Assembly (NCBI GenBank): GCA_024408655.1
Contig: JAKSUV010000004.1
Location: 7,112-71,111 of the forward strand
Length of the DNA: 64,000 bases
Direction: 5' to 3'
Source: Bacilli bacterium
GTDB lineage: Bacteria > Bacillota_I > Bacilli_A > RFN20 > CAG-826
Part shown: positions 4,894 through 42,871 of the stretch, one piece after another
Layout: the number at the start of each line of letters is the position of its first letter
How positions within the stretch are numbered: position 1 is the first letter of the stretch
The notes under the pieces: generated by a model
What the model saw: the letters and a program-made list of their open reading frames with translations, nothing else
Told to the model about the DNA's origin: nothing
The model's database searches: none
Program-made: the position numbers and the translations under genes

Positions 4894-5658
4894 TTATTTC
4901 TTCGGTAAATATTTTTGACCTTTTTTAATCGCCATTAATTCGAATTGGTCGATATCTTTTTCTTTTAAAAGTTTTTGGTCTTCTTTACTTAACTTTATTT
5001 GCTTAAATAAATCGGGCCGATATTTTTTCGTTAATTTTAGTTGTTGTTTCCGGTAATAACGATTAATCACTTTGTGATTACCCGAATATAAGACGAGCGG
5101 AACTTTATCACCTTGATAATCATAAGGTTCAGTGTATTGCGGATATTCAAGTAAATTATCGTTAAAGGATTCGTGCGTTAAAGAATCATCGGCGATAGCG
5201 CCTTTTAGTAAACGAATCACACTATCGCTAATCGCCATACTCGCCACTTCGCCACCCGTTAAAATATAATCCCCAATTGAGATTAATTCATCAACGTATT
5301 TATTGACCCGCTCATCAACTCCTTCATAGTGGCCACAGATAATAGTGATACTAGGAAGTTTCGCTAATTGAGCGGCCTTCTTTTGGCTATATCTTTCTCC
5401 GCGTGCGCACGTTAATATAATATGCGAGTGTTTCGCGTGTTTTTTTAAGGCGTCAACAATGGGTTGACATTTCATGACTAAACCCGCGCCACCAGAAACC
5501 GGCGGAGTATCAACTCGACCATATTTATCTTTGGTAAAATCACGAATGTTAATAATGTTAATTTCGACAACTTTTTTCTTAATCGCACGCTTAATAATTG
5601 AGTTAGTTAAAAAACCATCAAACATTTCTGGGAACAAAGTTAAGATATTTATTTTCAT
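4894..5658 (-). CDS. trmD: tRNA (guanine37-N1)-methyltransferase
   Basis: MKINILTLFPEMF..., GGAGLVM and YEGVDERV...GDYILTGGE are classic TrmD motifs. The gene sits downstream of rimM. Confidence 0.92.
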   Translation of the reverse strand: MKINILTLFPEMFDGFLTNSIIKRAIKKKVVEINIINIRDFTKDKYGRVDTPPVSGGAGLVMKCQPIVDALKKHAKHSHIILTCARGERYSQKKAAQLAKLPSITIICGHYEGVDERVNKYVDELISIGDYILTGGEVASMAISDSVIRLLKGAIADDSLTHESFNDNLLEYPQYTEPYDYQGDKVPLVLYSGNHKVINRYYRKQQLKLTKKYRPDLFKQIKLSKEDQKLLKEKDIDQFELMAIKKGQKYLPKK

Positions 5659-6155
5659 AACATTCCTTCAATTAATTTTACCTTAATTACTTTATCGGTT
5701 AAGTTAACACCTAAGATAAACGCTTCCACAAACGGAATATCAAATTGGCGGTGATCCGCGCTTTCGCAGCGAAGTAAATAATGAGCCGGTAAAGCAATAA
5801 CCGCTCTTACTTCACCAACAATCTGGTTGTTATCTTTGACTTTTAAGCCAACTAAATCACTTAAGTGATAATAACCATCAGGAAGCTTTGCGTCTTCTTT
5901 CTTTACATATAGTTCTTTACCAATTAATGAACTCACTAATTTCACATCTTGGTAATCTTTAAAAGAAACCACATCAAATTCCGCGTAATGATAAAAGGAA
6001 GCAACGACTAATGGACGATATTCGTTATTTTCACGGTAATAAACCGTATTACCAGTTTGGTAACGTAAAAAAGCGAAGTCGGTGTGTGAAAACACTTTGA
6101 CTTCGCCTTTTAAACCTTTTGGTTTACTAATTTTACCAAGTAAAAGGTAACCCAT
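5655..6155 (-). CDS. rimM: 16S rRNA processing protein RimM
   Basis: LGKISKPKGLKGEVKV N-terminus, in the conserved rpsP-KH-rimM-trmD order. Confidence 0.85.
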   Translation of the reverse strand: MGYLLLGKISKPKGLKGEVKVFSHTDFAFLRYQTGNTVYYRENNEYRPLVVASFYHYAEFDVVSFKDYQDVKLVSSLIGKELYVKKEDAKLPDGYYHLSDLVGLKVKDNNQIVGEVRAVIALPAHYLLRCESADHRQFDIPFVEAFILGVNLTDKVIKVKLIEGML

Positions 6156-6445
6156 TACTTCGCTTCGTTAGTAGTGGGGGATGTAGTATCTACTTTTCCT
6201 TTATTGGCAATATCTTCAAAATGAAGATGGACAAACTTATTGTCTTCTTTACCAGCGATGTTAATCGTTTCGCGTAAGGCATTCGCGATCACACCGTGTT
6301 TACCAATTAAACGACTCACATTGTCGTTATCGGCATAAATATAAATCGTAATATCTCTTTCTTCTTCTTTAAGTTCGATTTCGACTTTACTTGGATCAGT
6401 CACAATCGCATCAATGAAAGAATGAATAACTGCTTTATAATCCAT
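6155..6445 (-). CDS. KH-domain RNA-binding protein (YlqC family)
   Basis: RLIGKHGVIANALR contains the GxxG KH motif. The position between rpsP and rimM is conserved. Confidence 0.75.
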   Translation of the reverse strand: MDYKAVIHSFIDAIVTDPSKVEIELKEEERDITIYIYADNDNVSRLIGKHGVIANALRETINIAGKEDNKFVHLHFEDIANKGKVDTTSPTTNEAK

Positions 6446-6447
6446 AA

Positions 6448-6894
6448 TTACTTAGCCTCCTTATTTTCGGTTGCTGGAGTAGCAGGGGCATCCGCTTTTG
6501 GGGTTTCCGCCTTTGGCGCTTCAGTTGGTTTCGCTTCCACCTTTGGCATAGGAGCGGGTTTTACTTTCTTAACTTTGGGTTTTGCGGGACGGTCAAACTT
6601 ATTCTTTTTGACGGTCTTGCTCTTTTTATGGCTTGGACCTTTGCTCGCGTTATATTTAGCAATCACACCAAGAGAAGTTAATAGCGTCTTAATGGAATCG
6701 CTTGGTTGGGCACCGCTTTTAAGCCACTTCATGGCTAACTCTTCGTTAATTTCGGCTTTCCCGGTGGTAGGATTAAAACGACCAATTTGTTCGATGTAGC
6801 GACCATCACTCGCATAGCGAGAATCGGCAGCGACAATCCGGAAGTAGGGGTCGTTATGGCGACCTAAACGCGCCATTCTTAATTTAACTGACAT
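6448..6894 (-). CDS. rpsP: 30S ribosomal protein S16 with a long Lys/Ala/Pro-rich C-terminal tail
   Basis: MSVKLRMARLGRHNDPYFRIVAADSR is the S16 signature. The protein is 148 aa, against about 90 aa for a typical S16. Confidence 0.92.
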   Translation of the reverse strand: MSVKLRMARLGRHNDPYFRIVAADSRYASDGRYIEQIGRFNPTTGKAEINEELAMKWLKSGAQPSDSIKTLLTSLGVIAKYNASKGPSHKKSKTVKKNKFDRPAKPKVKKVKPAPMPKVEAKPTEAPKAETPKADAPATPATENKEAK

Positions 6895-7030
6895 AGATCT
6901 CTCCTTGTTGTTTCGATGAATAATATCCTACCCTAAATTATCAAAGTGTCAAGTAAAAATACTTAACAGTCTCAATATTACCCTTCTTGCGATAGTAGAG
7001 TATAATGAACTTGTTTGTGAGGAAGACTCT

Positions 7031-9337
7031 ATGTTAGAAATTAATCATTTATGTAAATCGTATAAATCAAAAAGTGGTGCGAGTGTCAAAGCGCTTGATG
7101 ATATTTCGTTAAAATTTCCGAAGACGGGAATGGTATTTATTCTTGGTAAATCGGGCTCAGGCAAATCAACTTTGTTAAACGTTCTCGGTGGACTCGATTC
7201 GTTTGATAGTGGTGAGTTCTACGTAAAAGGAACGCCCGTTCATAACTTTAAACAAAATAAATTTGATAGTTATCGTAATACTTATGTTGGTTTTATTTTC
7301 CAAGAATACAATATTCTTGATGAATTTACCGTTGGCCAAAATATCGCGTTAGCGATGCAACTACAAAACCAAAAGCCGACGAGTGAGGCCATTAATAAAA
7401 TTTTAGCGGATGTGGATCTTGATGGTTTAGGTGATCGGAAACCAAATGAGTTGTCCGGCGGACAAAAGCAAAGAGTCGCGATCGCTCGGGCTCTTATTAA
7501 GAATCCCCAAATCATTATGGCTGATGAACCAACCGGTGCGCTTGATAGTAAAACCGGGATCCAAATCTTTGATGTGCTTAAGAACTTATCAAGAGAACGG
7601 CTAGTCATTATCGTGTCGCATGACCGCGAATTCTCCGAAAAATACGCGGACCGGATTATCGAAATTAAAGATGGTCAAGTGTTAAGCGATGTCTCTTGTG
7701 CGAGTGGGAAACGCGTTCCAGTACAAGAGAATGTTATTTATCACGCGAACGAAATTACGGTTAAGAAGAACTATGTTCTTACCCAAAAAGATTTAAAAGA
7801 AATTAATGAATATCTTAAACACCAAAAAGCCAACTTAACGATTAAGTCGGGTAAGACCGATGACTATAAAGGCGCGGGTAAAGGCCGGTTTACCAAAACC
7901 GATGAAAGTAAAATTGTTACCGATAAATCGGGCTTTACTTTGATCAAATCAAAACTACCATTAGGTCGGGCATTTAAAATGGGCACTAGTGGTTTAAAAC
8001 ACAAAAAGTTTAAATTAGTGATGACCATCTTCCTTTCATTGATTTCCTTTAGTCTTCTTGGTATGTCAATTTCGATTGCGTTAGCAACACCCCAAAGCGC
8101 AACGCAAAACGCATTATACGATTCCTATATTAACTTTGCCTCATTTAATAAAGAGTTTTATGACGCAAAAAATAAAAACGTCTATTATGACCCCATTGGT
8201 TTTGATGATAGCGATTTAGAAGTTATTAAAAAAGAAACCGGCTGCCTTACAATCCCCGTTTATGAAACCGGATACGGAGTTAGTTCAGACGATGTTGATG
8301 AAGGGCCATTGCGCCAGCACGAAGCATATGTTTCTGAGTTTTCTGGATATGTACTATTAAACGATGATTTAAAAGGGAAATTCACCTATGTTCCGGGTGG
8401 TAAAGACCCAACAAATGAAAATGAAATAGCAATTCCTGATTATTTAGCGTGGTCATATGCTGACTATGGGAAAGGCGGTTTAGAACAGATAAAAGAGCCG
8501 GCCGAACTCGTTAATCAAAAAATTCACCTTGATAAAGAATACACTGTTACTGGAATTATTGATACTGGTTTTGATTTTTCAATCGGTAGATATGCTGACA
8601 TTCGTAAGCATGCCTGGAATGATCCGTATTCAGCTGAAATATCAGTGATGATGAATGAACTTTATTCATTTAAACAGTGTTCAATCGATGCATGTGTACT
8701 TGTAACCCAGCATTTACAGTATGCTACTCAAAAGGTGGTCCGTGTTGTCGCACCTTTTGATACGACCGATAAATCATTAATTAAAAAAGTCGTGAATTTC
8801 TCGTATGATCATTTGGCCTTGAGTGAAGCTGAGAAGGCTATACCAGAGCTATCAGAAGCCACCTATCGTCGTCTAGTGTTAAGTGATTATATTTCACAAG
8901 GAGTTCGGATGGCTTTTAACACGATGCAAGTCCTTACCCAAGTTTTCTTATATGTTGGTTTAGCCTTTGTCGTGTTCTCGGGTTTACTCTTAGCGAACTT
9001 CATCTCTAATTCAATTACTTACCAGAAAAAGGAAATTGGTATCTTGCGGGCGATTGGTTCAAGAAGCGCAGACGTCTTTAAGATTTACTTTGCTGAATCC
9101 TTCGTGATTGCGACGATTAACTTCATCTTATCAGCGGTGGCCTCTTGGGCTATCATGACTTTCGCCATTAACCCAAACATTAGTGCCGCTATCGGCGGAT
9201 TCTCTATCTTTAGTTTTGGTATTATACCAATCCTTGTTGTCTTTGGTGTCTCCTATCTTTCCGCTTTCGCGGCCACTTATCTACCGGTTAAACATATTGC
9301 TCGTAAACGTCCGATTGAAGCAATTCGCAATAAGTAA
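7031..9337 (+). CDS. Fused ABC ATP-binding / FtsX-type permease (MacB-like)
   Basis: Walker A GKSGSGKST, signature LSGGQKQR and Walker B IIMADEPT. These are followed by a TM helix, a large extracytoplasmic domain and C-terminal FtsX-like TM helices. Confidence 0.85.
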   Translation: MLEINHLCKSYKSKSGASVKALDDISLKFPKTGMVFILGKSGSGKSTLLNVLGGLDSFDSGEFYVKGTPVHNFKQNKFDSYRNTYVGFIFQEYNILDEFTVGQNIALAMQLQNQKPTSEAINKILADVDLDGLGDRKPNELSGGQKQRVAIARALIKNPQIIMADEPTGALDSKTGIQIFDVLKNLSRERLVIIVSHDREFSEKYADRIIEIKDGQVLSDVSCASGKRVPVQENVIYHANEITVKKNYVLTQKDLKEINEYLKHQKANLTIKSGKTDDYKGAGKGRFTKTDESKIVTDKSGFTLIKSKLPLGRAFKMGTSGLKHKKFKLVMTIFLSLISFSLLGMSISIALATPQSATQNALYDSYINFASFNKEFYDAKNKNVYYDPIGFDDSDLEVIKKETGCLTIPVYETGYGVSSDDVDEGPLRQHEAYVSEFSGYVLLNDDLKGKFTYVPGGKDPTNENEIAIPDYLAWSYADYGKGGLEQIKEPAELVNQKIHLDKEYTVTGIIDTGFDFSIGRYADIRKHAWNDPYSAEISVMMNELYSFKQCSIDACVLVTQHLQYATQKVVRVVAPFDTTDKSLIKKVVNFSYDHLALSEAEKAIPELSEATYRRLVLSDYISQGVRMAFNTMQVLTQVFLYVGLAFVVFSGLLLANFISNSITYQKKEIGILRAIGSRSADVFKIYFAESFVIATINFILSAVASWAIMTFAINPNISAAIGGFSIFSFGIIPILVVFGVSYLSAFAATYLPVKHIARKRPIEAIRNK

Positions 9338-9392
9338 AGTAAAAATTTGTGTTTAGTTCATAGATAGTGCTATCATAACTAGGCACATTCTT

Positions 9393-9468
9393 GGGGCAGT
9401 AGCTCATCTGGGAGAGCGCATCGTTCGCAACGATGAGGTAGCGGGTTCGATCCCCGTCTGCTCCACCA
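9393..9468 (+). tRNA. tRNA-Ala (anticodon CGC)
   Basis: 76-nt cloverleaf folded by hand. The acceptor stem GGGGCAG/CTGCTCC carries the G3:U70 Ala identity pair. Anticodon loop is TTCGCAA, T-loop TTCGATC, and CCA is encoded. Confidence 0.9.
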
Positions 9469-9482
9469 AGAAAACGAAAAAT

Positions 9483-9507
9483 AACAGCAAATATTGCTGT
9501 TTTTTTA
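9483..9507 (+). terminator. Intrinsic terminator after tRNA-Ala
   Basis: Hairpin aacagcaa/ttgctgtt followed by a T-run. Confidence 0.55.
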
Positions 9508-9519
9508 TGTAATAAAAAC

Positions 9520-11349
9520 ATGAAAATTAAACCAATGAAGTTAGTGAGTCTAGCGGCCTTAATCGTAACCGCGACTTATTTTGTCGGCTGCGCAAATAAA
9601 ACCGACCGTAATGATTTAGTCATTTTATATACGAATGACGTGCACGGCTTTTTTGGCGAAGAAAATCGTCTTACTTATTCTTCCGTGGCGAAATTAAAAC
9701 AAGAACTCATCGCCGAAGGTAATGACGTTTTGTTAGTGGATGCCGGTGATAATTTATCGGGTTCAATTAATGCTAATTACGATGAAGGCGCCACCGCGGT
9801 TAAGTTAATGAATATGACGGGTTATGATGTCGTTACGCTTGGTAACCACGAATTCGATAGTGGAGTTGCTCATTTACAAGACACGATGAAGAACGCTAAA
9901 TATAAATATATTTCTACTAATTTTTATCACCTAGATAATGGTCAAGCCACTACTCCGTTTACTGATACAAGTACAATCTTTAATTTTCATAATCATAAAG
10001 TCGGCGTGATTGGTATTACAACTCCGCAAACCATTGGTGATTGCACCCCTGATACTTTCCAAAACGAACAAGGTGAATTTATTTATACTTTCTTAAAAGA
10101 ATTAGATCAAGATGGCAAGATTTTCTTCACGAAAGTACAAGCGGAAATTGATCAATTAAAGACCGCGGGTTGTGAAACGATTATTGCCCTTACTCACTTA
10201 GGACAAGAAGATGATGAAGGCCAATCACCTCTCACGAGCGTCCAGTTTGTTAGAAAAACTAACGGAATTGATTTAGTAATTGACGCCCACACCCATCAAT
10301 ATATGCCCGGAAGCCTATATCCAAATAAAGACGGGAAATTAATTACGATTACCCAAACCGGGTCAAGTTTTTCGAATATTGGCCAAGCGTTGATCACTCG
10401 TACTAATAGTGTTTACACGAAGATGTATGATTATGAACACTATACTAAGCACGATGAAACAGTCAAAAAAGCCGAAGATGACTATGTCAACAAAATCGAA
10501 GAAGAATTTAAAGATCCACTCGGAAAAATGGATGTTGGACTAGTTCACTATGTTAAACATGATCCAAGCGAGTATCATGAATATAATTTGTCGGATTTTT
10601 GCGCCGATGGTTTTTATTACTACGCGAATAATCCCGAAGGCGATGTCCAAAAAGCGCTAAAAAATCAGTGGGTTAATATGGCCTTTATTAATAACGGCGG
10701 GATTAGAGAACAATATGTTAGTAAAAATACTACCTGGACGAAAAAGACTGGTTATGGTCTACTTCCTTTCCCTAACCACCAAGTGGTGCGGAAAGTTGAT
10801 GGCCAAACTTTATGGGAAGCGCTAGAGTTTAGTGTGCGTAGTGTTCCTAACTATAACAGTGGTTTACTTATTCCCGCCGGTATTAGATACAATTTAGACA
10901 AAAGCAAAACAGCCGAATTTATTGTTGATAAATCGGGTAATTATATCGAGGGGCCAACTAATTACAGCTATACAGATTCTTGTGCCCGCATCTCTAACAT
11001 TCAAATTTATGATTCTACAGAAGCCGATGGTTGGGCGGATTTTGACCTAAAAAAAGAATACTATATTGCCGGTAGTGACTATATCCTTAAAAAAGGCGGC
11101 GATAGTTTATTGATGTTCAGTGAGCCTTACGCTGATAAGAAAGATCGGACATACGAAATTGTTTACGAAGGCGATAACGACTACAAAGCTTTAAATAGCT
11201 ATGTCGATAATTTTGGCGATGCACCCGAAAGTACAACGGTTAATAGTGCAAATTCCCCTCTAAAGACTTTAGCGGGTGAATACGCTAATGATTGCATTCT
11301 TTATGAGGAAGAAGAACCCAATAAACGTATTATTCTACCGACAGCATGA
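9520..11349 (+). CDS. Lipoprotein, bifunctional metallophosphatase/5'-nucleotidase family
   Basis: Signal peptide with lipobox (YFVGC). Metallophosphatase motifs NDVHG, DAGDN and GNHEFD. Confidence 0.8.
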   Translation: MKIKPMKLVSLAALIVTATYFVGCANKTDRNDLVILYTNDVHGFFGEENRLTYSSVAKLKQELIAEGNDVLLVDAGDNLSGSINANYDEGATAVKLMNMTGYDVVTLGNHEFDSGVAHLQDTMKNAKYKYISTNFYHLDNGQATTPFTDTSTIFNFHNHKVGVIGITTPQTIGDCTPDTFQNEQGEFIYTFLKELDQDGKIFFTKVQAEIDQLKTAGCETIIALTHLGQEDDEGQSPLTSVQFVRKTNGIDLVIDAHTHQYMPGSLYPNKDGKLITITQTGSSFSNIGQALITRTNSVYTKMYDYEHYTKHDETVKKAEDDYVNKIEEEFKDPLGKMDVGLVHYVKHDPSEYHEYNLSDFCADGFYYYANNPEGDVQKALKNQWVNMAFINNGGIREQYVSKNTTWTKKTGYGLLPFPNHQVVRKVDGQTLWEALEFSVRSVPNYNSGLLIPAGIRYNLDKSKTAEFIVDKSGNYIEGPTNYSYTDSCARISNIQIYDSTEADGWADFDLKKEYYIAGSDYILKKGGDSLLMFSEPYADKKDRTYEIVYEGDNDYKALNSYVDNFGDAPESTTVNSANSPLKTLAGEYANDCILYEEEEPNKRIILPTA

Positions 11350-15304: not shown

Positions 15305-16906
15305 ATGAGTAACAAAATTAATCTTTTCCAGCGGATTAGTAATCGCGTGGGTCAGACTTATAGCGGTCAAAAGATTCCGCGGGGAACGAAATGGACTTAT
15401 TCAGTTTCCGGAACTTTTCGTGATGCCGCTTACGCTTTAATGTCGGCTTTCGTAATTGTTTACGCAAAAGAAGCGGGCATTATTGATATTGGTTCAGCAG
15501 CGATTTTAGGTGCGATCTCAGCGGTTTTAATTGCGTTTCGCGTCTTTGACGCGGTAAATGACCCAATCATGGGTGTCATTATTGAGCGGGTCCATTTTAA
15601 AACCGGTAAATATAAACCATGGATCTTTATCGGTAGCTTCATCTCGATGATTACCTATTTAGCCTTGTTCTGCGGGCCGAAAATCTTCCCTTGGTGTCGC
15701 GATTGGGTGTATGTTGGTTGGTTCGCGGTTTTCTATTTATTGTGGGATATTGGCTTTACGATGAACGACATTGCTTATTGGAGCATGCTCCCGAGTATGT
15801 CAAGCGTTGAAAAAGAACGGGCACAAGTGACTTCCATTGTTCTATTTTGTTGTAACATTGGTGAATTTGTCGTGACCGCTTTAACACCGTTTTTAACCCA
15901 AACGAATATTTTAGGCACCGATGCCTATTGGGTGATTTGTCTAATTGTTACCGGTTTATTTCTCATCAGTCAGACTTGTGTCTTTATCTTTTGTAAGGAG
16001 CGTTCACGAAATTTATTAGACCGGAAAGCCGAGAAGCCGGCAAGCGTGAAAGACTTATTTAATGTCTTAAAGAATAATTCGCAAGTGCGAACGATGATTA
16101 TCGTGATCTTGCTCTATTATATTTCCATTCATATTATTAACGGCTTAATGAATGATGTGCTTTGGATTACTGCTGGTTATAATGAAGCAAAACAATTACA
16201 GTTCTATTTCACTTTCGTTAATACCGCCGCGGTTTTATTACCACCCGTATTTATTCCGTTATTATTAAAGAAGTTTTCGTTAAGAAAAGTTGCTAATGTT
16301 GGCCTAGTGGGGATGTTAGCAACCCGGATTATCTTCTTATTCTATGGTTCACCAATCGGTAATAATTTAATTGCGCCACCGCAAATTCTTGGTGGAGGCT
16401 TAGGTGCGGGCTACGCGACTTGTTTCTGTATCCTTTCGGCTTTGATGGTGTTATCGCAAACCGTTGCCTATAACATTTTCTTAATCATGATGAGTAACAC
16501 GATTGAATATAACGAATATAAAACTGGCGACCGCCAAGAATCAATTATTTTCTCACTTCGCCCGTTTTCCACTAAACTCTCTTCTTCCATCAAAGAAGGG
16601 GTGGTGTTTGTCGCCTTATTAACGACGGGTATTAATAAAATTGAAGGCGAGATTGGTAAGATTAATGATTCAGATTTAGATCCAGCACAAAAAGAAGCGG
16701 CAATTACTGAAGTATTACGAGGCGTTACCGCTAGCCAAGTTTGGGGATTAAAACTAATCATGGTGATTATTCCATTACTTTGTATCATTGCTTGTTATTT
16801 ATTAATCCGTAAATATTACTTTATTGACGAAAAGTATTATGCCAAAATTTGTGATGAAATTGATAAGCGCAATAAAAAGGATTTAAAAGAAGCGAAGGCA
16901 AAATAA
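15305..16906 (+). CDS. Glycoside-pentoside-hexuronide (GPH):cation symporter family transporter, copy 1
   Basis: FDAVNDPIMGVIIERVHFKTGKYKPWI is the GPH/MelB-type signature, in a 12-TM-like profile. I chose ATG 15305 because the GTG at 15281 lies inside the fusA terminator. TATAAT at 15292-15297. Confidence 0.8.
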   Translation: MSNKINLFQRISNRVGQTYSGQKIPRGTKWTYSVSGTFRDAAYALMSAFVIVYAKEAGIIDIGSAAILGAISAVLIAFRVFDAVNDPIMGVIIERVHFKTGKYKPWIFIGSFISMITYLALFCGPKIFPWCRDWVYVGWFAVFYLLWDIGFTMNDIAYWSMLPSMSSVEKERAQVTSIVLFCCNIGEFVVTALTPFLTQTNILGTDAYWVICLIVTGLFLISQTCVFIFCKERSRNLLDRKAEKPASVKDLFNVLKNNSQVRTMIIVILLYYISIHIINGLMNDVLWITAGYNEAKQLQFYFTFVNTAAVLLPPVFIPLLLKKFSLRKVANVGLVGMLATRIIFLFYGSPIGNNLIAPPQILGGGLGAGYATCFCILSALMVLSQTVAYNIFLIMMSNTIEYNEYKTGDRQESIIFSLRPFSTKLSSSIKEGVVFVALLTTGINKIEGEIGKINDSDLDPAQKEAAITEVLRGVTASQVWGLKLIMVIIPLLCIIACYLLIRKYYFIDEKYYAKICDEIDKRNKKDLKEAKAK

Positions 16907-21536: not shown

Positions 21537-22625
21537 TTAATATTTATTAATTAAACTATTCATTTGTTTGTATTGTTTTTCCATTTCGCTTACTAATTTA
21601 AGTTGAGTGCGAGCACGTACTAAGTTATGAGTAGAGTACTTAATATGGAAATAATGATCACCTTCAAGATAATCAGTTAAGAAACGCATCCCACATTCAA
21701 GTGTCATTATGATACTTCCTAACGCCAAATTCTCTTTTTCTTTCTTGGTAATTACTTTACCTAAGGTTTTTAGGAAACCTTTTAAAAAGATTTCGTATAA
21801 ATCAAGCCGGAAGTGTACTTTGCTTAAATCTTTTTCATCTTCTTTCGCGGAGTTGGTGCCAAAACGAATTGCATCACCAAAATCATAGCAAAGGGAACCT
21901 GGCATAATCGTGTCTAAGTCAACAACTGCGATAGGGCGATGTGTTTTTTCATCAAACAAGATATTGTTTAGTTTTGTATCGTTATGAGTAACGCGCGTTG
22001 GGATTATTTTCTTCTTAAGCATATTAACAATTAATGGACAATATTGTTGATGGTTAATAATAAATTTAATTTCTTTTTGGCAAGTCTTCGCGCGTTTCAT
22101 CTTATCGAGTTTAACCGCTTTTAAGAAAGCTTTATAACGAAGTTCGGTGTTATGGAAATTAGGGATAATTTCGTATAATTTATTCGCGTTAAACTTCGCT
22201 AAAATTTTGTAGAAATTCGCAAACGCCACCGCGGTGTAATAAAAATCTTGTGGTTTTTTAATGATTTGTAGACTTACCGTGTGGTCAATAAAATATAATA
22301 CTCGCGCGTAAAGATTCTCATATTTAACATAGGATTTTTTATCCTTAGTAAACACGATATTAATGGTTTCGCGTAGTGGATCACCACCTTGTTTAACAAT
22401 TGCTTGGCGATAAAACTTAGTAACAGCAACATAATTTTCCATTAAGTGCGAGACGGGATGAAAAATCTTATCGTTAATGATTTGTAAGATATACCGCTCT
22501 TTATTTTTGAAAGTTACTAAATAGGTATTATTAATATGACCTTCGCCATAAGGAACAGCCTTAATTACTTCGCTATTAATTGGATATAATTGAAAGATTT
22601 TCTTAATGTCGACGAGTTTAAGCAT
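21537..22625 (-). CDS. APH-fold sugar kinase resembling N-acetylhexosamine 1-kinase (NahK/LnpB)
   Basis: VTHNDTKLNNILFD (Brenner-type catalytic loop) and VVDLDTIMPGSLCYDFGDAIR. I chose ATG 22625 (362 aa) because a minus-strand TATAAT (22641-22636) lies inside the longer ORF extension. Confidence 0.7.
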   Translation of the reverse strand: MLKLVDIKKIFQLYPINSEVIKAVPYGEGHINNTYLVTFKNKERYILQIINDKIFHPVSHLMENYVAVTKFYRQAIVKQGGDPLRETINIVFTKDKKSYVKYENLYARVLYFIDHTVSLQIIKKPQDFYYTAVAFANFYKILAKFNANKLYEIIPNFHNTELRYKAFLKAVKLDKMKRAKTCQKEIKFIINHQQYCPLIVNMLKKKIIPTRVTHNDTKLNNILFDEKTHRPIAVVDLDTIMPGSLCYDFGDAIRFGTNSAKEDEKDLSKVHFRLDLYEIFLKGFLKTLGKVITKKEKENLALGSIIMTLECGMRFLTDYLEGDHYFHIKYSTHNLVRARTQLKLVSEMEKQYKQMNSLINKY

Positions 22626-22726
22626 ACCTTTTATTATTATATTAGTTTTAATCATAAAACGATTAAAAACATCATTTATTTCACCCACGCGTATTCAGAT
22701 AATAAAAAAGTGGTTTATAGAAAGTT

Positions 22727-22754
22727 ATTGATTTGTCTAGTTTTAATGTATAAT
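22727..22754 (+). promoter_or_regulatory. Putative promoter of the three-gene islet
   Basis: TTGATT (22727-22732), a 16-nt spacer, then TATAAT (22749-22754). Confidence 0.5.
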
Positions 22755-22785
22755 GTATCTATCAATGGAAAAAGGAAAATGAGTT

Positions 22786-22959
22786 ATGGCTACATCAAGC
22801 ATATTTGCTAGTTTTGATATTAAAGAGTCGAAGAAAGCCGAGTCTTTTGCTTTTGCTTTAAAATCTTCGATAGACGCAACCAAAAATGATAAGCAATTAG
22901 CCAATTGTGATTCAGTAAAGAATAAACAAGATTTATCCAAAATAATTAAAAAACTTTAA
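22786..22959 (+). CDS. 57-aa ORF, candidate antitoxin/partner of the downstream GNAT protein
   Basis: Below the ORF-track cutoff; read from the DNA as MATSSIFASFDIKESKKAESFAFALKSSIDATKNDKQLANCDSVKNKQDLSKIIKKL. A purine-rich stretch (aaaggaaaa) lies about 6 nt upstream. The ORF ends 10 nt before the next ATG. Any resemblance to the RHH start of DUF1778 antitoxins (K-E-S-x-K/R-A) is weak. Confidence 0.45.
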   Translation: MATSSIFASFDIKESKKAESFAFALKSSIDATKNDKQLANCDSVKNKQDLSKIIKKL

Positions 22960-22969
22960 GTCTTATTTT

Positions 22970-23560
22970 ATGGCTGAATATATAAGGGTTAATATCCTAG
23001 ATTTAATCGAGAACTTTGGCGAAGATAAGGTTAAGAAAGCCGTTTCTAGTTTTGCTTGTGAAAAAAACGCTGATGTTGAATTGTTTTTAAAAACAAACGC
23101 CATTGAATTTGCTAAAAAGAAAACATCTATTACATATTTAGTAATTAGAAAAGAGCCTGTTGCATTGGTTGGTTATTTTACCTTGATGCACAAATCAATT
23201 GTAGTAAAACCGGGGCCACATTTATCTTCTATGCTTATCCGCGCTATAGAAAAATGTGCTAAGTTAGATGAAACAAACCGTGTTTATAATGTTTCTGCAT
23301 TTTTAATCGCCCAATTTGCCAAAAATTCTAATATTAAAGATTTAGAAGCTCATTTTGGTGATAAATTAATGGGGTATGCTTTAAATACTCTTATAGAAAT
23401 TAGGAGAAACATAGGTGGGAGAGTCGTCTTTCTTGAGTGTGAAAAGAACAAAACAAAATTAGTTAATTTTTATCAAAAAGAAAATAATTTTTTTAGAATT
23501 TTTGGATCTAGGATAGATGAATCAGGCAAAACATATTTACAACTTTTAAGGCATTTTTAG
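22970..23560 (+). CDS. GNAT-fold protein resembling TacT/AtaT/KacT-type acetyltransferase toxins
   Basis: FACEKNADVELFLKTNAIEFAKKKTSITYLV...LVGYFTL matches the family N-terminal pattern F-x-[CS]-G-x3-L-x-x-[FW]-L...T-[FY]-[VL]-V...G-[FY]-[FY]-[ST]-L. The C-terminal VVFLECEKNKTKLVNFYQKENNF retains the conserved FY. The acetyl-CoA loop looks degenerate (AHFGDKL). Confidence 0.6.
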   Translation: MAEYIRVNILDLIENFGEDKVKKAVSSFACEKNADVELFLKTNAIEFAKKKTSITYLVIRKEPVALVGYFTLMHKSIVVKPGPHLSSMLIRAIEKCAKLDETNRVYNVSAFLIAQFAKNSNIKDLEAHFGDKLMGYALNTLIEIRRNIGGRVVFLECEKNKTKLVNFYQKENNFFRIFGSRIDESGKTYLQLLRHF

Positions 23561-23567
23561 AAGATTT

Positions 23568-23918
23568 ATGAATTATAAATGGAAAAAAGAATTTGAAGAA
23601 ATAAAAGAAACTAGTATTCTCAGTTGTTTTAAAACTAATGCAGATGGGGTAGATGTGATGGCAATCATATCTATATCGCCTGTAATTGATGAGCTTAACA
23701 AAAAACGTATTATAAATCTCAGTATATATTTTAAAGCCGGAAGTGTTACCAAAGGTACATATAGATGGGTAGTATTAGATATCTTAGATTTAAGTAAGCA
23801 ATATAGCGCTCATTATAAAACAGAGTTTTCTCCATATTGTCTCTTAGAAAGCTACTATGTTCGTAGGTTTCCTAAACTAACTATTTTGTTTCATGGGACA
23901 TGCGCATATATTGACTAG
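23568..23918 (+). CDS. Hypothetical 116-aa protein, third gene of the islet
   Basis: ORF 7 nt after the GNAT stop. Very AT-rich. No recognisable motif. Confidence 0.5.
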   Translation: MNYKWKKEFEEIKETSILSCFKTNADGVDVMAIISISPVIDELNKKRIINLSIYFKAGSVTKGTYRWVVLDILDLSKQYSAHYKTEFSPYCLLESYYVRRFPKLTILFHGTCAYID

Positions 23919-23949
23919 ATAACAACAATTAAATTTGATGAAAAAAAGT

Positions 23950-23978
23950 TTGCAATTAACAATAACTTGCTATAAGAT
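23950..23978 (+). promoter_or_regulatory. Putative tuf promoter
   Basis: TTGCAA (23950-23955), a 17-nt spacer, then TAAGAT (23973-23978). Strong SD aagaggag before ATG 24027. Confidence 0.4.
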
Positions 23979-24026
23979 ATAACACGCTACGAATTTAGCA
24001 TTCGAAGAGAAAAGAGGAGATTTTTT

Positions 24027-36578: not shown

Positions 36579-36652
36579 AGGGGTATCGTACAAAGGTAGT
36601 ACAACGGTCTCCAAAACCGTTTATGTGGGTTCAATTCCTACTACCCCTGCCA
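36579..36652 (+). tRNA. tRNA-Trp (anticodon CCA)
   Basis: 74-nt cloverleaf folded by hand. Acceptor AGGGGTA/TACCCCT, anticodon loop CTCCAAA, T-loop TTCAATT, discriminator G and encoded CCA. Confidence 0.9.
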
Positions 36653-36694: not shown

Positions 36695-39142
36695 TTAAGT
36701 TTTCTTGAGCATTTTTATTAGCCAAGAAGTAGAAATCTTGCTCGCTTTTTCAGAAAACGTTTTAAAATCGATTCCGCTATTACCATCAGCCGTATCGGAA
36801 ATACTTCTAATAATACAAAAAGGTGTTCCGTTTTGTAGACAAACCTGGCCAATTGCCGCGCCTTCCATTTCCGCGCATAAAGCACCTGGAAAGTTTTTCA
36901 GGATGTCATTTCTTTGCTTCATAGTGGAAACAAATTGATCACCGGAAACAATAATTCCTCTTTTTACATTAATTCCATCAGCCTTAGCCGACATAATTTT
37001 ATCCGCTAATAATTTGTTGGCTCTCATTTCAACTGCACCAAGGGCGTCAATATAACCAAGTGGTAAACCAATCTTGCGTAAATCTAAGTCCCATTCAATT
37101 ACCGAATCAGAAATGACCACATCGCCAACTTTTAAGTTTGGATCAAGCGCACCAGCGCAGCCGGTGTTAATAATATAATCCGGATGATAACCATCAATCA
37201 TTGCTTGGGCACAAATACCAGCGGAGACCTTACCCATCCCACACTGCATAATAATTACTTCGTTATTACCTAATATTCCGGTATAGGCTGGTTTATTTAG
37301 TAAGGTAATCTTTTTCACATTCGAAAGTTCGGCCCGGAATAAATCTTCTTCGTATTTTAAAGCGGCAATGATTCCATAACGGATTCTTCGCGCGTCGGCT
37401 TTTTTGTTTTCGTGGATTAAACTCGGGAGAACAAGCTTACCACAAGTTAAATCATCGTTATCTTCTTCGTGCGTATCTTCAAACACGATGACATCCCAGC
37501 CGTTTTTAATAAAATCTTGTTCGAGTTTTTTAATTAAGGAAGTTTTCATAGTGCTAAAGCCATTGTCCACGGCGTTATAGGTGGTATAAATCGGCGTAAG
37601 CTTAATCATGAATTTTTGTTTATCAAATAATTTATTAATTTTTGCGATGTCGATGGTTAAAGTGTCACCAACGGCAAAAGATAGGGCATATTTCATACCC
37701 TTTGGGAGGGGCATTTTCTTAGCAATCTCGGCAATATCTTCAAGCGGTAAAGAGCGATCAGCCATTAAGAGGCTTCTTATCTTATTATCGGTAGTGTGAA
37801 TACTAAATTGTAATAAGGCTTGACCATTATAGACTTCATTTTTAATTCGACAATATTCAAGAATAAAGCGCTCAACTTTAACCTTATTTCTTGGCAACAT
37901 CGTTGAGACATTCGGCACAATTTGCTCAACATCGATTTTATTCGTGATGATTTTTCTTAAATCATATTCGATAAAATTAAGTAATTCATCGTTCATGGTC
38001 GGTTCACCCATGCGCATGAAGTTGATTTCAAAGTATTTCGTGTGCGAGAGGTAGTGGGTGTCTAAGATTACGTTTAATTGATAGGCGAATTCTTCGCTAG
38101 TGACGTTACCATGTAAACCAAGCCCTGGACAATCACAAAAGGCACAGGCCATATTACAGCCTTTTTGACAAGACAAAAGGACATACCACCCACGCTCATA
38201 ATTAATTTTCGTTAGTTCGTTACGACCTTGGTAGCCTAAGAAATCCGCTTTCCGAATATGTTCTGGGTAATCGCCCGGATATGAGACGAATTCAATGTAT
38301 TTTTTACTGTCGACATAAATTGTTCCGTGGCTTCGACTAATGATTTTTAGTCCCGCGTTTTTCTTAATGATATTGTGACGAGTCATCATCGCAATGATTG
38401 AAAGAAGCAAAATTGAATTGGTCGTAATGATTGTTACTCGATAAATGATCTGCCAGATTTTTGGTGTTTCTTCATTTTGGTGGAGTAAATAAACAACTAG
38501 AATATCTAGACCAAAAATTAGTAACTGCACTAACGAGGAAATGAGGATGATCATTTCGTTACCGGATAGTTTCCGTTTTCCTTTATGGAGGAAGCGCGAA
38601 TACATGTGATCTAATAGAACCATTAACGGTAGGCCAAACGCTAGACACATGACAAAGTCATTAAGTCCGGCAAATAACGCTGTTTCCCATAACCCTGATC
38701 CGGAGGCATAGAGTTGAATTAAACCAACGGCGATACCAATCGGGATAGCGTTAAAGGCCATTAAAAGGACATAAGCAATCACTTTATATGGCGAATCTAA
38801 GCGTGTCCGCATTGAGATGGTTTTTACTAATAATTTCCAAATGTAGTAGGGCAATAATCCATAGATTAGTTGTGGTATAAACCCCATCAATGCCACGATA
38901 ATTCCATAGCCAGAAACTAAATCAGAAAAAAAGTTGGCGAACGCACAACTAATTGCCGCGGGCCAACCATACGCCAAGCCTAAAACCGGGTTAAGAGCAG
39001 CGGATGGTCTTACATCAGAGACCATGTACGCGGGCAAAGTTTTGTTAAACGTTATCGTAATGGCAAAAAAGAGAATAAAAGTCGTTAAAAACACGATGAT
39101 ATTCTTTTTACTAAAGATTTTTTTGAATAGTTTTTCCATCAT
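36695..39142 (-). CDS. Tri-domain fusion: polytopic ECF-S-like membrane domain + RlmN/Cfr-like radical-SAM domain + MTA/SAH (5'-deoxyadenosine) nucleosidase domain
   Basis: Residues 1-258 hold about 6-7 TM helices (VRPSAALNPVLGLAYGWPAA...FFSDLVSGYG). Residues ~270-575 carry CNMACAFC (CX3CX2C, nt 38135-38158), NFMRMGEPTMND, LLQFSIHTTDNKIR and DDLTCGKL, all RlmN/Cfr-like. Residues ~586-815 carry GIIAALKYEED, CGMGKVSAG, CAEMEGAA and IRSISDTAD, matching MtnN/Pfs catalytic motifs. Confidence 0.8.
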   Translation of the reverse strand: MMEKLFKKIFSKKNIIVFLTTFILFFAITITFNKTLPAYMVSDVRPSAALNPVLGLAYGWPAAISCAFANFFSDLVSGYGIIVALMGFIPQLIYGLLPYYIWKLLVKTISMRTRLDSPYKVIAYVLLMAFNAIPIGIAVGLIQLYASGSGLWETALFAGLNDFVMCLAFGLPLMVLLDHMYSRFLHKGKRKLSGNEMIILISSLVQLLIFGLDILVVYLLHQNEETPKIWQIIYRVTIITTNSILLLSIIAMMTRHNIIKKNAGLKIISRSHGTIYVDSKKYIEFVSYPGDYPEHIRKADFLGYQGRNELTKINYERGWYVLLSCQKGCNMACAFCDCPGLGLHGNVTSEEFAYQLNVILDTHYLSHTKYFEINFMRMGEPTMNDELLNFIEYDLRKIITNKIDVEQIVPNVSTMLPRNKVKVERFILEYCRIKNEVYNGQALLQFSIHTTDNKIRSLLMADRSLPLEDIAEIAKKMPLPKGMKYALSFAVGDTLTIDIAKINKLFDKQKFMIKLTPIYTTYNAVDNGFSTMKTSLIKKLEQDFIKNGWDVIVFEDTHEEDNDDLTCGKLVLPSLIHENKKADARRIRYGIIAALKYEEDLFRAELSNVKKITLLNKPAYTGILGNNEVIIMQCGMGKVSAGICAQAMIDGYHPDYIINTGCAGALDPNLKVGDVVISDSVIEWDLDLRKIGLPLGYIDALGAVEMRANKLLADKIMSAKADGINVKRGIIVSGDQFVSTMKQRNDILKNFPGALCAEMEGAAIGQVCLQNGTPFCIIRSISDTADGNSGIDFKTFSEKASKISTSWLIKMLKKT

Positions 39143-39276: not shown

Positions 39277-39298
39277 CGATTGATATAAATATCAATTG
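39277..39298. promoter_or_regulatory. 22-bp near-perfect palindrome in the divergent intergenic region (candidate operator)
   Basis: cgattgatataaatatcaattg has core TTGATAT-aa-ATATCAA, 20 of 22 positions symmetric. It lies between the fusion gene (-) and the membrane-protein gene (+). Confidence 0.45.
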
Positions 39299-42797: not shown

Positions 42798-42871
42798 TGG
42801 AGCAGGTGGCGAGAATCGAACTCGTGTAATCAGCTTGGAAGGCTGATGTTCTACCATTGAACTACACCTGC
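42798..42871 (-). tRNA. tRNA-Gly (anticodon UCC)
   Basis: The reverse complement GCAGGTGTAGTTCAATGGTAGAACATCAGCCTTCCAAGCTGATTACACGAGTTCGATTCTCGCCACCTGCTCCA folds as a 74-nt cloverleaf. Anticodon loop CTTCCAA, discriminator U and encoded CCA. There is one A-C mismatch at the base of the T stem. Confidence 0.85.

Follow-up and report, generated by a model that had tools for sequence, protein, structure and literature searches.

The window analysed here (a stretch of 64,000 nucleotides from contig JAKSUV010000004.1 of the horse-gut Bacilli bacterium assembly GCA_024408655.1) contains an uninterrupted ATG-to-stop open reading frame (ORF) of 815 amino acids, which was originally predicted from sequence alone to fuse an ECF-S-like membrane domain, an RlmN/Cfr-like radical-SAM domain and an MTA/SAH/5'-deoxyadenosine nucleosidase (Table 1). 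This observation is confirmed. The CX3CX2C motif, NFMRMGEPTMND, LQFSIHTTDNKIR, DDLTCGKL, CAEMEGAA and ISDTAD are present in the translation, and profile searches, which had been set beforehand as a test of the prediction, placed the three parts in order as QueT (PF06177; residues 24-178), Radical_SAM (PF04055; residues 325-456, 23.5 bits) and PNP_UDP_1 (residues 588-809, 159 bits). To determine whether the fusion could be an assembly chimera, we searched for homologues and found that 56 protein clusters from independent assemblies (NCBI, ENA, JGI and Logan) share the architecture down to 37-43% identity; about 16 GTDB species genomes also carry it, and the identical protein is in NCBI from a Bacilli bacterium MAG. 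The architecture is thus not an assembly artefact. Two apparent two-domain forms were not used as independent evidence, since one (protein P0060) is a three-domain gene broken by a frameshift and the other (P0012) lies on an error-ridden contig.

Table 1. Coordinates, in window positions, of the fusion gene, its parts and the adjacent palindrome.
Position	Strand	Feature
36695..39142	-	Whole 815-aa ORF encoding the S-component, radical-SAM and MtnN fusion (end coordinate includes the stop codon)
38363..39142	-	N-terminal integral-membrane domain, residues 1-260: QueT-family ECF S-component core (residues 24-178) followed by two extra hydrophobic helices (about residues 194-255)
37418..38359	-	Radical-SAM domain, residues 262-575, with a predicted RlmN/Cfr-like fold; member of the unnamed family phrog_24834
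38135..38158	-	CX3CX2C motif for the [4Fe-4S] cluster (C329, C333, C336), followed by D337 and C338
37850..37852	-	Codon of C431
37442..37444	-	Codon of C567 in DDLTCGKL, the equivalent of the RlmN Cys355 methyl-carrier cysteine
36698..37381	-	C-terminal MTA/SAH/5'-deoxyadenosine nucleosidase (MtnN) domain, residues 588-815
39280..39295		Palindrome TTGATATAAATATCAA in the divergent intergenic region; probably not a conserved regulatory site

Two details of the original prediction do not hold. Firstly, the cysteine four residues upstream of the cluster motif (C325), read as the shifted upstream cysteine of RlmN/Cfr and so a candidate second catalytic cysteine, is Cys in only 4 of 130 family members and Thr in 111, and we reject it as a catalytic residue. 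Secondly, although the palindromic site between the gene and a divergently paired membrane-protein gene is unique in the window (one match against 0.05 expected), one arm is already mutated at a 99%-identical locus (L060), the site is absent upstream of other homologues and no Rfam element is present there. The divergent pairing with the membrane-protein gene is likewise not conserved.

The N-terminal domain scored 39.8 bits against the Pfam QueT gathering cutoff of 33.7, and 36 of 37 fusion homologues hit QueT (best E 3.6e-13), whereas no NCBIfam S-component model matched; this assignment to the QueT family in particular was not part of the original prediction. An ECF S-component is a compact ~6-helix membrane domain with both ends cytoplasmic. 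The AF2 model shows eight helices, hydropathy shows about 6-7 hydrophobic segments, and K/R-rich stretches lie at residues 1-14, 104-119, 184-197 and 256-275, although the helix count from the model and hydropathy does not by itself place the C-terminus in the cytoplasm. Within the 64-kb window, no EcfA-type ATPase motif pair was found apart from one 805-aa ABC protein. Since QueT is a queuosine-precursor transporter family, we considered whether the protein could be an all-in-one queuosine salvage machine, in which the QueT domain would import queuosine or queuine, the nucleosidase domain would release the base (the role of QueK) and the radical-SAM domain would cleave queuine to preQ1 (the role of QueL). 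This would fuse onto one polypeptide the three functions of the C. difficile queK-qrtT-queL operon (Yuan et al. 2019, as described in PMC11130926 and PMC12632869), in which an ECF S-component, a nucleoside hydrolase and a radical-SAM lyase are encoded by separate genes and QueK is an IunH-family hydrolase, not MtnN. In favour of this view, the hosts are gut bacteria, where queuine salvage is common, and PMC12632869 notes that a non-orthologous replacement for QueL may exist in streptococci. However, even though QueT genes are typically controlled by a preQ1 riboswitch, Rfam scans for preQ1, NAD+ or SAM riboswitches upstream of the gene and of about 18 homologous fusion loci found nothing. No tgt, queA, queK, qrtT/queT or other queuosine gene recurred as a neighbour of any family member in about 80 genome loci and 80 viral loci, and no tgt or queA motif occurs in the window; the only link is the fusion to a QueT-family domain itself. 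The close free-standing relatives of the radical-SAM domain sit in NAD operons instead (see below). In addition, the MtnN mechanism protonates purine N7, which 7-deazaguanine nucleosides lack, and the MtnN domain in the window scores as a housekeeping equivalog. QueL (C. difficile CD1684, Q186P0) is tabulated in the queuosine literature under IPR006638, a signature that RlmN-type proteins are not known to carry. Overall, we consider the queuosine reading unlikely.

We next examined the middle domain, for which RlmN/Cfr is the nearest known family by sequence and by predicted fold. RlmN/Cfr models matched residues 309-572 with E values of 3e-12 to 6e-12, a family profile searched against the PDB hit only Cfr and RlmN, and the AF2 model (pLDDT 83.5, pTM 0.85) gave as top Foldseek hits the RlmN-type structures 6fz6 and 4pl2 (TM 0.62 and 0.57, respectively). 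The domain also shares with RlmN and Cfr the CX3CX2C motif, the MGEP SAM-binding motif and a C-terminal-loop cysteine, C567, which aligns with RlmN Cys355 (AACGQL) and is conserved in 76 of 79 genome-derived and 126 of 130 total members. The three cluster cysteines and D337 are invariant in 130/130 members, C338 is conserved in 58/79 and is Val in the DPANN/CPR/Bacteroides subgroup, and C431 (72/79 and 125/130) is the only other widely conserved non-cluster cysteine. In marked contrast, the domain fails the curated cutoffs of the RlmN/Cfr family (TIGR00048, 45.2 bits against 290; CfrAB, 46.4 against 530; TIGR04432, 43.2 against 550). No cysteine sits at the position of the resolving Cys118, seven residues before the cluster motif in RlmN; it is T/S/N in 126/130 members. 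As originally predicted, the RlmN RNA-binding N-domain is absent: matches start at RlmN model position ~98, and a ~55-residue beta-strand sub-domain takes its place. The domain is therefore not a member of RlmN/Cfr. Some databases do name homologues '23S rRNA (adenine2503-C2)-methyltransferase' and phage copies often lie next to DNA methylases, which could point to a membrane-tethered paralogue that methylates adenine C2 or C8 in rRNA, tRNA or, in phages, DNA; however, fusion to a small-molecule S-component and the embedding of relatives in NAD operons (see below) do not fit a nucleic-acid substrate, and we regard this reading as very unlikely and reject it for rRNA.

Instead, the domain belongs to a separate, large and unnamed family, phrog_24834 ('unknown function'), which it matched over its full length with 198.7 bits (E 2.5e-58, residues 11-312 of the domain). 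More than 1,454 relatives were found at E <= 1e-8, of which the listed top hits are mostly free-standing ~318-aa proteins with 42-47% identity over about 95% of the domain; an exhaustive profile search gave 2,011 hits, and the family includes 286 viral contigs. Across 130 members, 83 of 324 positions are at least 93% conserved; the domain in the window shares all 83, and these positions, including all candidate catalytic residues, are common to the fusion and free-standing clades, which argues for one conserved chemistry.

To obtain clues to the substrate we inspected gene neighbourhoods, and found that free-standing members lie inside Preiss-Handler NAD-salvage operons, on the same strand and tightly spaced, in at least five unrelated settings with different gene orders. 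In Alphaproteobacteria (6 species) the order is pncB-pncA-rSAM-nadE-DUF5662-nrtR; two Firmicutes loci (L026 and L027) contain pncA, pncB, Nudix, rSAM, nadE, nadD, pncC, nrtR and nadK; two DPANN loci (L084 and L085) contain pncB, pncA and nadE; a Woesearchaeota locus (L081) and a CPR locus from Peregrinibacteria (L088) contain NMNAT, NadE and Nudix; and jumbo-phage contigs (L137, L141 and L158) contain PncA-like, NAPRTase-like and Nudix genes, with PnuC, NADAR and NadE occurring elsewhere in viral loci. NAPRTase, NAD_synthase and Isochorismatase are among the most frequent Pfam families in the ±2 neighbours of about 60 loci. More distant relatives (P0097, P0102 and P0131; E about 1e-34 to 1e-41 to the family profile) are fused to an isochorismatase-family domain, and in three Firmicute loci (L004-L006) an isochorismatase gene follows the close free-standing member, although the contexts of the rSAM-isochorismatase fusions, and of TrxR-rSAM fusions, were uninformative. 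This link to NAD salvage was not foreseen in the original prediction and provides a concrete substrate class to test. No radical-SAM step is part of the known NrtR-regulated Preiss-Handler pathway (pncA, pncB, nadD, nadE), and literature searches for a radical-SAM link to nicotinamidase, NrtR or NARP pathways found nothing.

The NAD-salvage context does not, however, extend to the fusion genes. None of those examined lies next to NAD genes, no NAD-salvage homologue was found in the window, and the neighbourhoods of three fusion homologues (L001-L003) show no conserved partner. The only family label on the transport domain is QueT, a queuosine-precursor transporter, not a niacin transporter. 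In phages, most copies sit among replication, recombination and DNA-methylase genes rather than NAD genes. Further, the fusion proteins form their own clade, only 40-44% identical to the free-standing, NAD-linked clade (itself 62-90% identical within), and the substrate could therefore differ between the two. It is thus possible, though less likely than a niacin-type substrate, that the logic of import, conversion and clean-up is the same but that the QueT-like pocket was re-purposed for some other imported heteroaromatic metabolite, unrelated to both NAD and queuosine. S-component families are known to shift specificity, and free-standing S-components of the same subtype (P0330-P0332) occur in unrelated contexts, where a 316-aa neighbour that might have been the radical-SAM partner is not one. 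On the other hand, the conserved positions shared by both clades favour the same chemistry and a similar substrate, and there is no positive evidence for any particular third substrate.

The C-terminal domain is a bona fide MtnN, scoring 223.9 bits with PRK05584 (cutoff 169) and 172.6 with TIGR01704 (cutoff 73.8) and matching S. aureus MTAN (3bl6) at E 3e-48. Residues E598, E760, D783, R779, F737 and M759 correspond to E. coli E12, E174, D197, R193, F151 and M173, respectively; E598, E760, D783 and F737 are present in all 8 members of the window's clade, in which S76 is replaced by Cys. Both SAH and 5'-deoxyadenosine (5'-dA) inhibit radical-SAM enzymes and MtnN relieves this, as in its role as helper of BioB and LipA, but here the nucleosidase is covalently fused to its radical-SAM partner and tethered to a membrane domain. 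We also considered whether the nucleosidase is a pathway enzyme rather than a by-product scavenger, such that the radical-SAM domain would add the 5'-deoxyadenosyl radical to its substrate, as MqnE does, and the MtnN-like domain would remove adenine from the adduct, as aminofutalosine nucleosidase does. MtnN doubles as aminodeoxyfutalosine nucleosidase in the futalosine pathway, and such PDB entries are among the hits; in the larger Clostridia clade the domain has diverged below the MtnN cutoffs with altered active-site residues (E12 to D/N, S76 to V, E172 to D), which suggests a specialised substrate; and in the distant relatives the same C-terminal position is taken by a different hydrolase, the isochorismatase-family domain. 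However, the window's own domain is canonical by score and residues, most family members are free-standing with no nucleosidase nearby, and the conserved Cys355-like residue points to RlmN-type rather than MqnE-type chemistry, making this explanation very unlikely.

Overall, we tentatively favour the view that the gene encodes a self-contained, membrane-anchored salvage machine. In this view, the QueT-family S-component domain would capture a small heteroaromatic vitamin-type precursor at the membrane; the radical-SAM domain, on the cytoplasmic side, would reductively cleave SAM and chemically convert that precursor, probably with participation of C567; and the fused MtnN domain would hydrolyse the inhibitory by-product 5'-dA, and SAH as well if a methyl group is moved. 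Because free-standing members of the same tightly conserved family are embedded in Preiss-Handler operons and more distant relatives are fused to an isochorismatase-family domain, the most likely substrate class is a niacin/NAD-related pyridine compound that is converted into a usable NAD precursor. The analysis itself establishes the domain identities, the conservation of the fusion, the family membership and the NAD-operon context of the family, whereas we infer that the fusion clade shares the substrate class of the free-standing clade, that flow runs from import to conversion and that MtnN has a housekeeping role. The original interpretation is thus partly supported: its three domain assignments hold, and its inference that the enzyme acts on an imported small molecule rather than rRNA is reasonable and fits the evidence, but the two-SAM methyl-synthase chemistry releasing SAH and 5'-dA that it proposed remains an inference. 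The specific chemistry is conjecture in the absence of biochemical data. One scheme that fits the retained Cys355-like and the missing Cys118-like residue is demethylation of an N-methylpyridinium compound, such as trigonelline or N1-methylnicotinamide, through an S-methyl-cysteine intermediate on the RlmN-like scaffold that is then cleared by 5'-dA radical chemistry; an alternative is Minisci-type C-methylation of the pyridine ring. That the family catalyses such a previously unknown radical reaction on a vitamin B3-type compound feeding the Preiss-Handler pathway, with the fusion as single-polypeptide importer, converter and scavenger and with phages carrying the free-standing enzyme to boost NAD supply during infection, is doubtful on present evidence but not excluded.

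We found no paper describing this architecture, in which transporter, catalyst and by-product handler are named in one construct, making the reaction directly testable. If the queuosine reading were right instead, the protein would be the non-orthologous replacement for QueL/QueK that the queuosine field has suggested may exist. If the NAD link holds, it would add a radical-SAM step to NAD precursor salvage, a pathway regarded as fully mapped, in reduced-genome gut bacteria, DPANN archaea, CPR bacteria and many gut phages, and would give a first small-molecule substrate to the RlmN/Cfr branch of radical-SAM enzymes, so far known only to act on RNA. It would also assign a function to phrog_24834, a widespread phage gene of unknown function, which bears on current work on phage NAD+ reconstitution against NAD-depleting defences.

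The window carries an uninterrupted 815-aa ORF on its minus strand and every motif named in the original prediction is present in its translation, so that the observation itself, a single polypeptide fusing three domains, holds. The window comes from, or is 99% identical to, a horse-faeces 'Bacilli bacterium' MAG (locus L060), and the identical protein is in NCBI (P0001), named only '5'-methylthioadenosine/adenosylhomocysteine nucleosidase'. To establish whether the fusion could have arisen through an assembly join or a missed frameshift, we searched for proteins with the same architecture. The three-part arrangement recurs in 56 protein clusters from independent assemblies, down to 37-43% identity, and also occurs in about 16 GTDB species genomes of gut Bacilli and Clostridia, and it is therefore a selected fusion rather than a chimera or a missed frameshift. 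One apparent two-domain protein consisting of the S-component and the radical-SAM part (P0060, on locus L177) is a three-domain gene interrupted inside the nucleosidase domain. The next ORF continues with IVNFGVVGGL, and this is either a frameshift error or a pseudogene.

We next determined the identity of each domain by profile searches. Pfam places the core of the N-terminal domain in the QueT family of ECF S-components, above the gathering cutoff (39.8 against 33.7 bits), and 36 of 37 fusion homologues hit the same model, whereas the generic ECF_trnsprt model barely registers. Two further hydrophobic helices follow the QueT core, and the K/R-rich segments of the protein include the linker into the enzyme part. 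The C-terminal domain scores as an MtnN equivalog (223.9 against 169 bits), is close to S. aureus and E. coli MTAN, and keeps the equivalents of Glu12, Glu174, Asp197, Arg193 and Phe151. In contrast, in the larger Clostridia clade of fusions this domain has diverged below the MtnN cutoffs, with changes of Glu12 to Asp/Asn, Ser76 to Val and Glu172 to Asp. The middle domain hits only RlmN/Cfr models, at 43-46 bits against cutoffs of 290-550. A family profile finds only Cfr and RlmN in the PDB, and an AF2 model of the domain (pLDDT 83.5, pTM 0.85) is closest to the RlmN-type structures 6fz6 and 4pl2, with TM of 0.62 and 0.57, respectively.

Since the original prediction had likened the middle domain to RlmN/Cfr, we considered whether it is a member of that family. 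It resembles one but is not a member. The domain keeps the CX3CX2C motif and a cysteine in the C-terminal loop (C567), which aligns with the methyl-carrier Cys355 of RlmN and is conserved in 76/79 genome-derived members. However, it lacks the RNA-binding N-domain and has no cysteine at the Cys118 position. The shifted upstream cysteine put forward in the original prediction (C325) is Cys in only 4 of 130 members. C431 (72/79) is the only other broadly conserved non-cluster cysteine, and C338 is invariant in the fusions but is Val in a DPANN/CPR/Bacteroides subgroup. The interpretation first offered for this protein is supported only in part.

Having established that the middle domain lies outside RlmN/Cfr, we investigated the family to which it belongs. 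A profile of the domain finds 2,011 proteins at E <= 1e-3 in an exhaustive search and more than 1,454 at E <= 1e-8 in a word-indexed search, and among the 120 best hits listed most are free-standing ~318-aa proteins, 42-47% identical over about 95% of the domain. The domain matches phrog_24834, 'unknown function', over its full length, and no Pfam or NCBIfam model describes the family. Across 130 members, 83 of 324 positions are at least 93% conserved. Free-standing members are 62-90% identical to each other across Alphaproteobacteria, Firmicutes and phages, whereas the fusions form a sister clade at 40-44% identity. More distant relatives occur fused to an isochorismatase-family domain at the C-terminus (proteins P0097, P0102 and P0131) or to a thioredoxin-reductase-like flavoprotein at the N-terminus (proteins P0109 and P0157), the latter possibly a built-in reductant for the cluster or for a disulfide; the one neighbourhood of this type examined, that of P0109, was uninformative.

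To determine the genomic setting of the family, we clustered and annotated the neighbours of about 60 free-standing copies in species genomes. The dominant neighbours are Preiss-Handler NAD-salvage genes, in lineages too distant and in gene orders too different for shared ancestry of the arrangement. In six Alphaproteobacteria, including Ca. Enterousia, the order is pncB-pncA-rSAM-nadE-DUF5662-nrtR. The Firmicute locus L026 contains pncA, pncB, a Nudix ADPR-hydrolase-like gene, rSAM, nadE, nadD, pncC, a 650-aa SAM-dependent methyltransferase, nrtR and nadK, and locus L027 contains a similar set in a different order. In the DPANN archaeon L084 the genes are rSAM, pncB, pncA, glutamine-dependent nadE and Nudix, in the Woesearchaeote L081 they are rSAM, NMNAT and Nudix, and in the Peregrinibacterium L088 they are nadE, NMNAT and rSAM. 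NCBIfam confirms several of these assignments above cutoff, namely PncB (441 against 297 bits), NadE, NadD and PncC, whereas NadK is the clear best match but scores below its cutoff (189 against 220 bits). Two further proteins of these clusters have no assigned role: the methyltransferase of L026 is of the PRK06922-type, class I (683 bits against a cutoff of 602), and represents a second SAM-using enzyme in an NAD operon, and the DUF5662 protein (~165 aa, PF18907), which sits between nadE and nrtR in the alphaproteobacterial NAD operon (loci L042, L044, L045, L048, L049 and L074, at +1/+2 of the radical-SAM gene), is another uncharacterised member of the same cluster. In Firmicute loci L004-L006 an isochorismatase gene follows the radical-SAM gene directly. 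In a prophage-like region (loci L008-L010), a 256-aa RibU/FolT-like ECF S-component gene lies four genes downstream of the free-standing radical-SAM gene, which is a second, unfused association of the family with an S-component.

Free-standing members are also common in gut phages. IMG/VR holds 286 relatives, many on 50-360 kb contigs, and the copies singled out here (L137, L141, L158, L100, L152 and L159) are on IMG/VR contigs of 38-361 kb. Jumbo-phage contigs L137, L141 and L158 place PncA-like, NAPRTase-like and Nudix genes right after the radical-SAM gene, and other viral loci add NadE, PnuC and NADAR. A gene for S-adenosylmethionine synthetase (MetK) lies 2-5 genes upstream of the radical-SAM gene in 7 viral loci (L107, L109 and five others), which suggests that the phage also supplies the SAM that the enzyme would consume. 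More often, however, phage copies lie among replication and DNA-methylase genes, and the cultured Bacteroides phage Versailles (L175) carries its copy (WAK79139), annotated only as a 'radical SAM domain-containing protein', in its replication module. No queuosine or 7-deazaguanine gene recurs anywhere among the loci surveyed.

The fusion genes have no conserved neighbours. The window holds no NAD-salvage homologue and no tgt or queA motif, and no riboswitch of any kind was found upstream of the gene, either here or in about 18 homologous loci. The intergenic palindrome and the divergent membrane-protein gene, to which the original prediction had drawn attention, did not hold up as conserved features: the palindrome is unique in the window but not conserved, and the divergent partner is not kept in relatives. 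Overall, the fusion looks like a stand-alone functional unit. A second radical-SAM protein encoded in the window has the motif ISDGCNNFCSYCTIP, which looks like that of a MiaB/RimO-type methylthiotransferase, and is unrelated to the finding. The positions of the features described are collected in the table below.

Positions of the fusion gene, its domains and other features in the window and in related loci
Sequence	Position	Strand	Feature
Window	36695..39142	-	815-aa fusion ORF
Fusion protein	residues 24-178		QueT-family core of the N-terminal domain
Fusion protein	about residues 194-255		two further hydrophobic helices
Fusion protein	residues 262-575		middle domain (radical SAM)
Fusion protein	residues 588-815		C-terminal MtnN domain
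Window	36579-36652	+	tRNA-Trp(CCA) gene, between ffh and the 3' end of the fusion gene, convergent with it
Window	42798-42871	-	tRNA-Gly(UCC)
Window	9393-9468	+	tRNA-Ala(CGC)
Window	~48680	+	421-aa ORF, second radical-SAM protein
Window	22001-24000		local dip in G+C content to 0.296, against about 0.37-0.39 elsewhere in the window
L175 (Bacteroides phage Versailles, ON453897.1)	15696-16703		free-standing family member
L026 (Firmicute)	8895-10847		650-aa SAM-dependent methyltransferase
P0109, P0157 (L091)	5578-7431		fusion to N-terminal thioredoxin-reductase-like flavoprotein
L008	7790-8560		RibU/FolT-like ECF S-component gene
L177	3333-5693		P0060, interrupted three-domain gene

The fusion and its radical-SAM family are in public databases but carry no functional name, and a literature search found no paper connecting a radical-SAM enzyme with nicotinamidase, NrtR regulons or phage NAD reconstitution. 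The individual parts are of types already described, whereas the combination, the family and its association with NAD salvage appear to be new.

The most economical reading of these results is an import, conversion and clean-up module, in which the S-component would capture a small heteroaromatic precursor, the radical-SAM domain would transform it, and MtnN would remove 5'-dA, and SAH too if a methyl group moves. The last step rests on the established product inhibition of radical-SAM enzymes. The domain identities, the recurrence of the fusion and the genomic setting of the family are what the sequences themselves show, whereas import, catalysis, by-product removal and the nature of the substrate are inferred from them. 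Pyridinium and pyridine rings are chemically suited to RlmN-like chemistry, and retention of the Cys355 equivalent without the Cys118 equivalent fits either a modified methyl-synthase or a demethylase that passes an N-methyl group to Cys567 and clears it by 5'-dA radical chemistry, although both schemes are conjecture. The QueT label of the N-terminal domain, and the parallel with the C. difficile queK-qrtT-queL pathway, keep a queuosine-salvage reading alive, although we consider it unlikely. The repeated, independent embedding of the family in NAD-salvage operons, together with the isochorismatase genes fused to or next to family members, points to a niacin-type pyridine compound as the substrate, an assignment that is probable for the free-standing clade and that we favour, but only tentatively, for the fusion.
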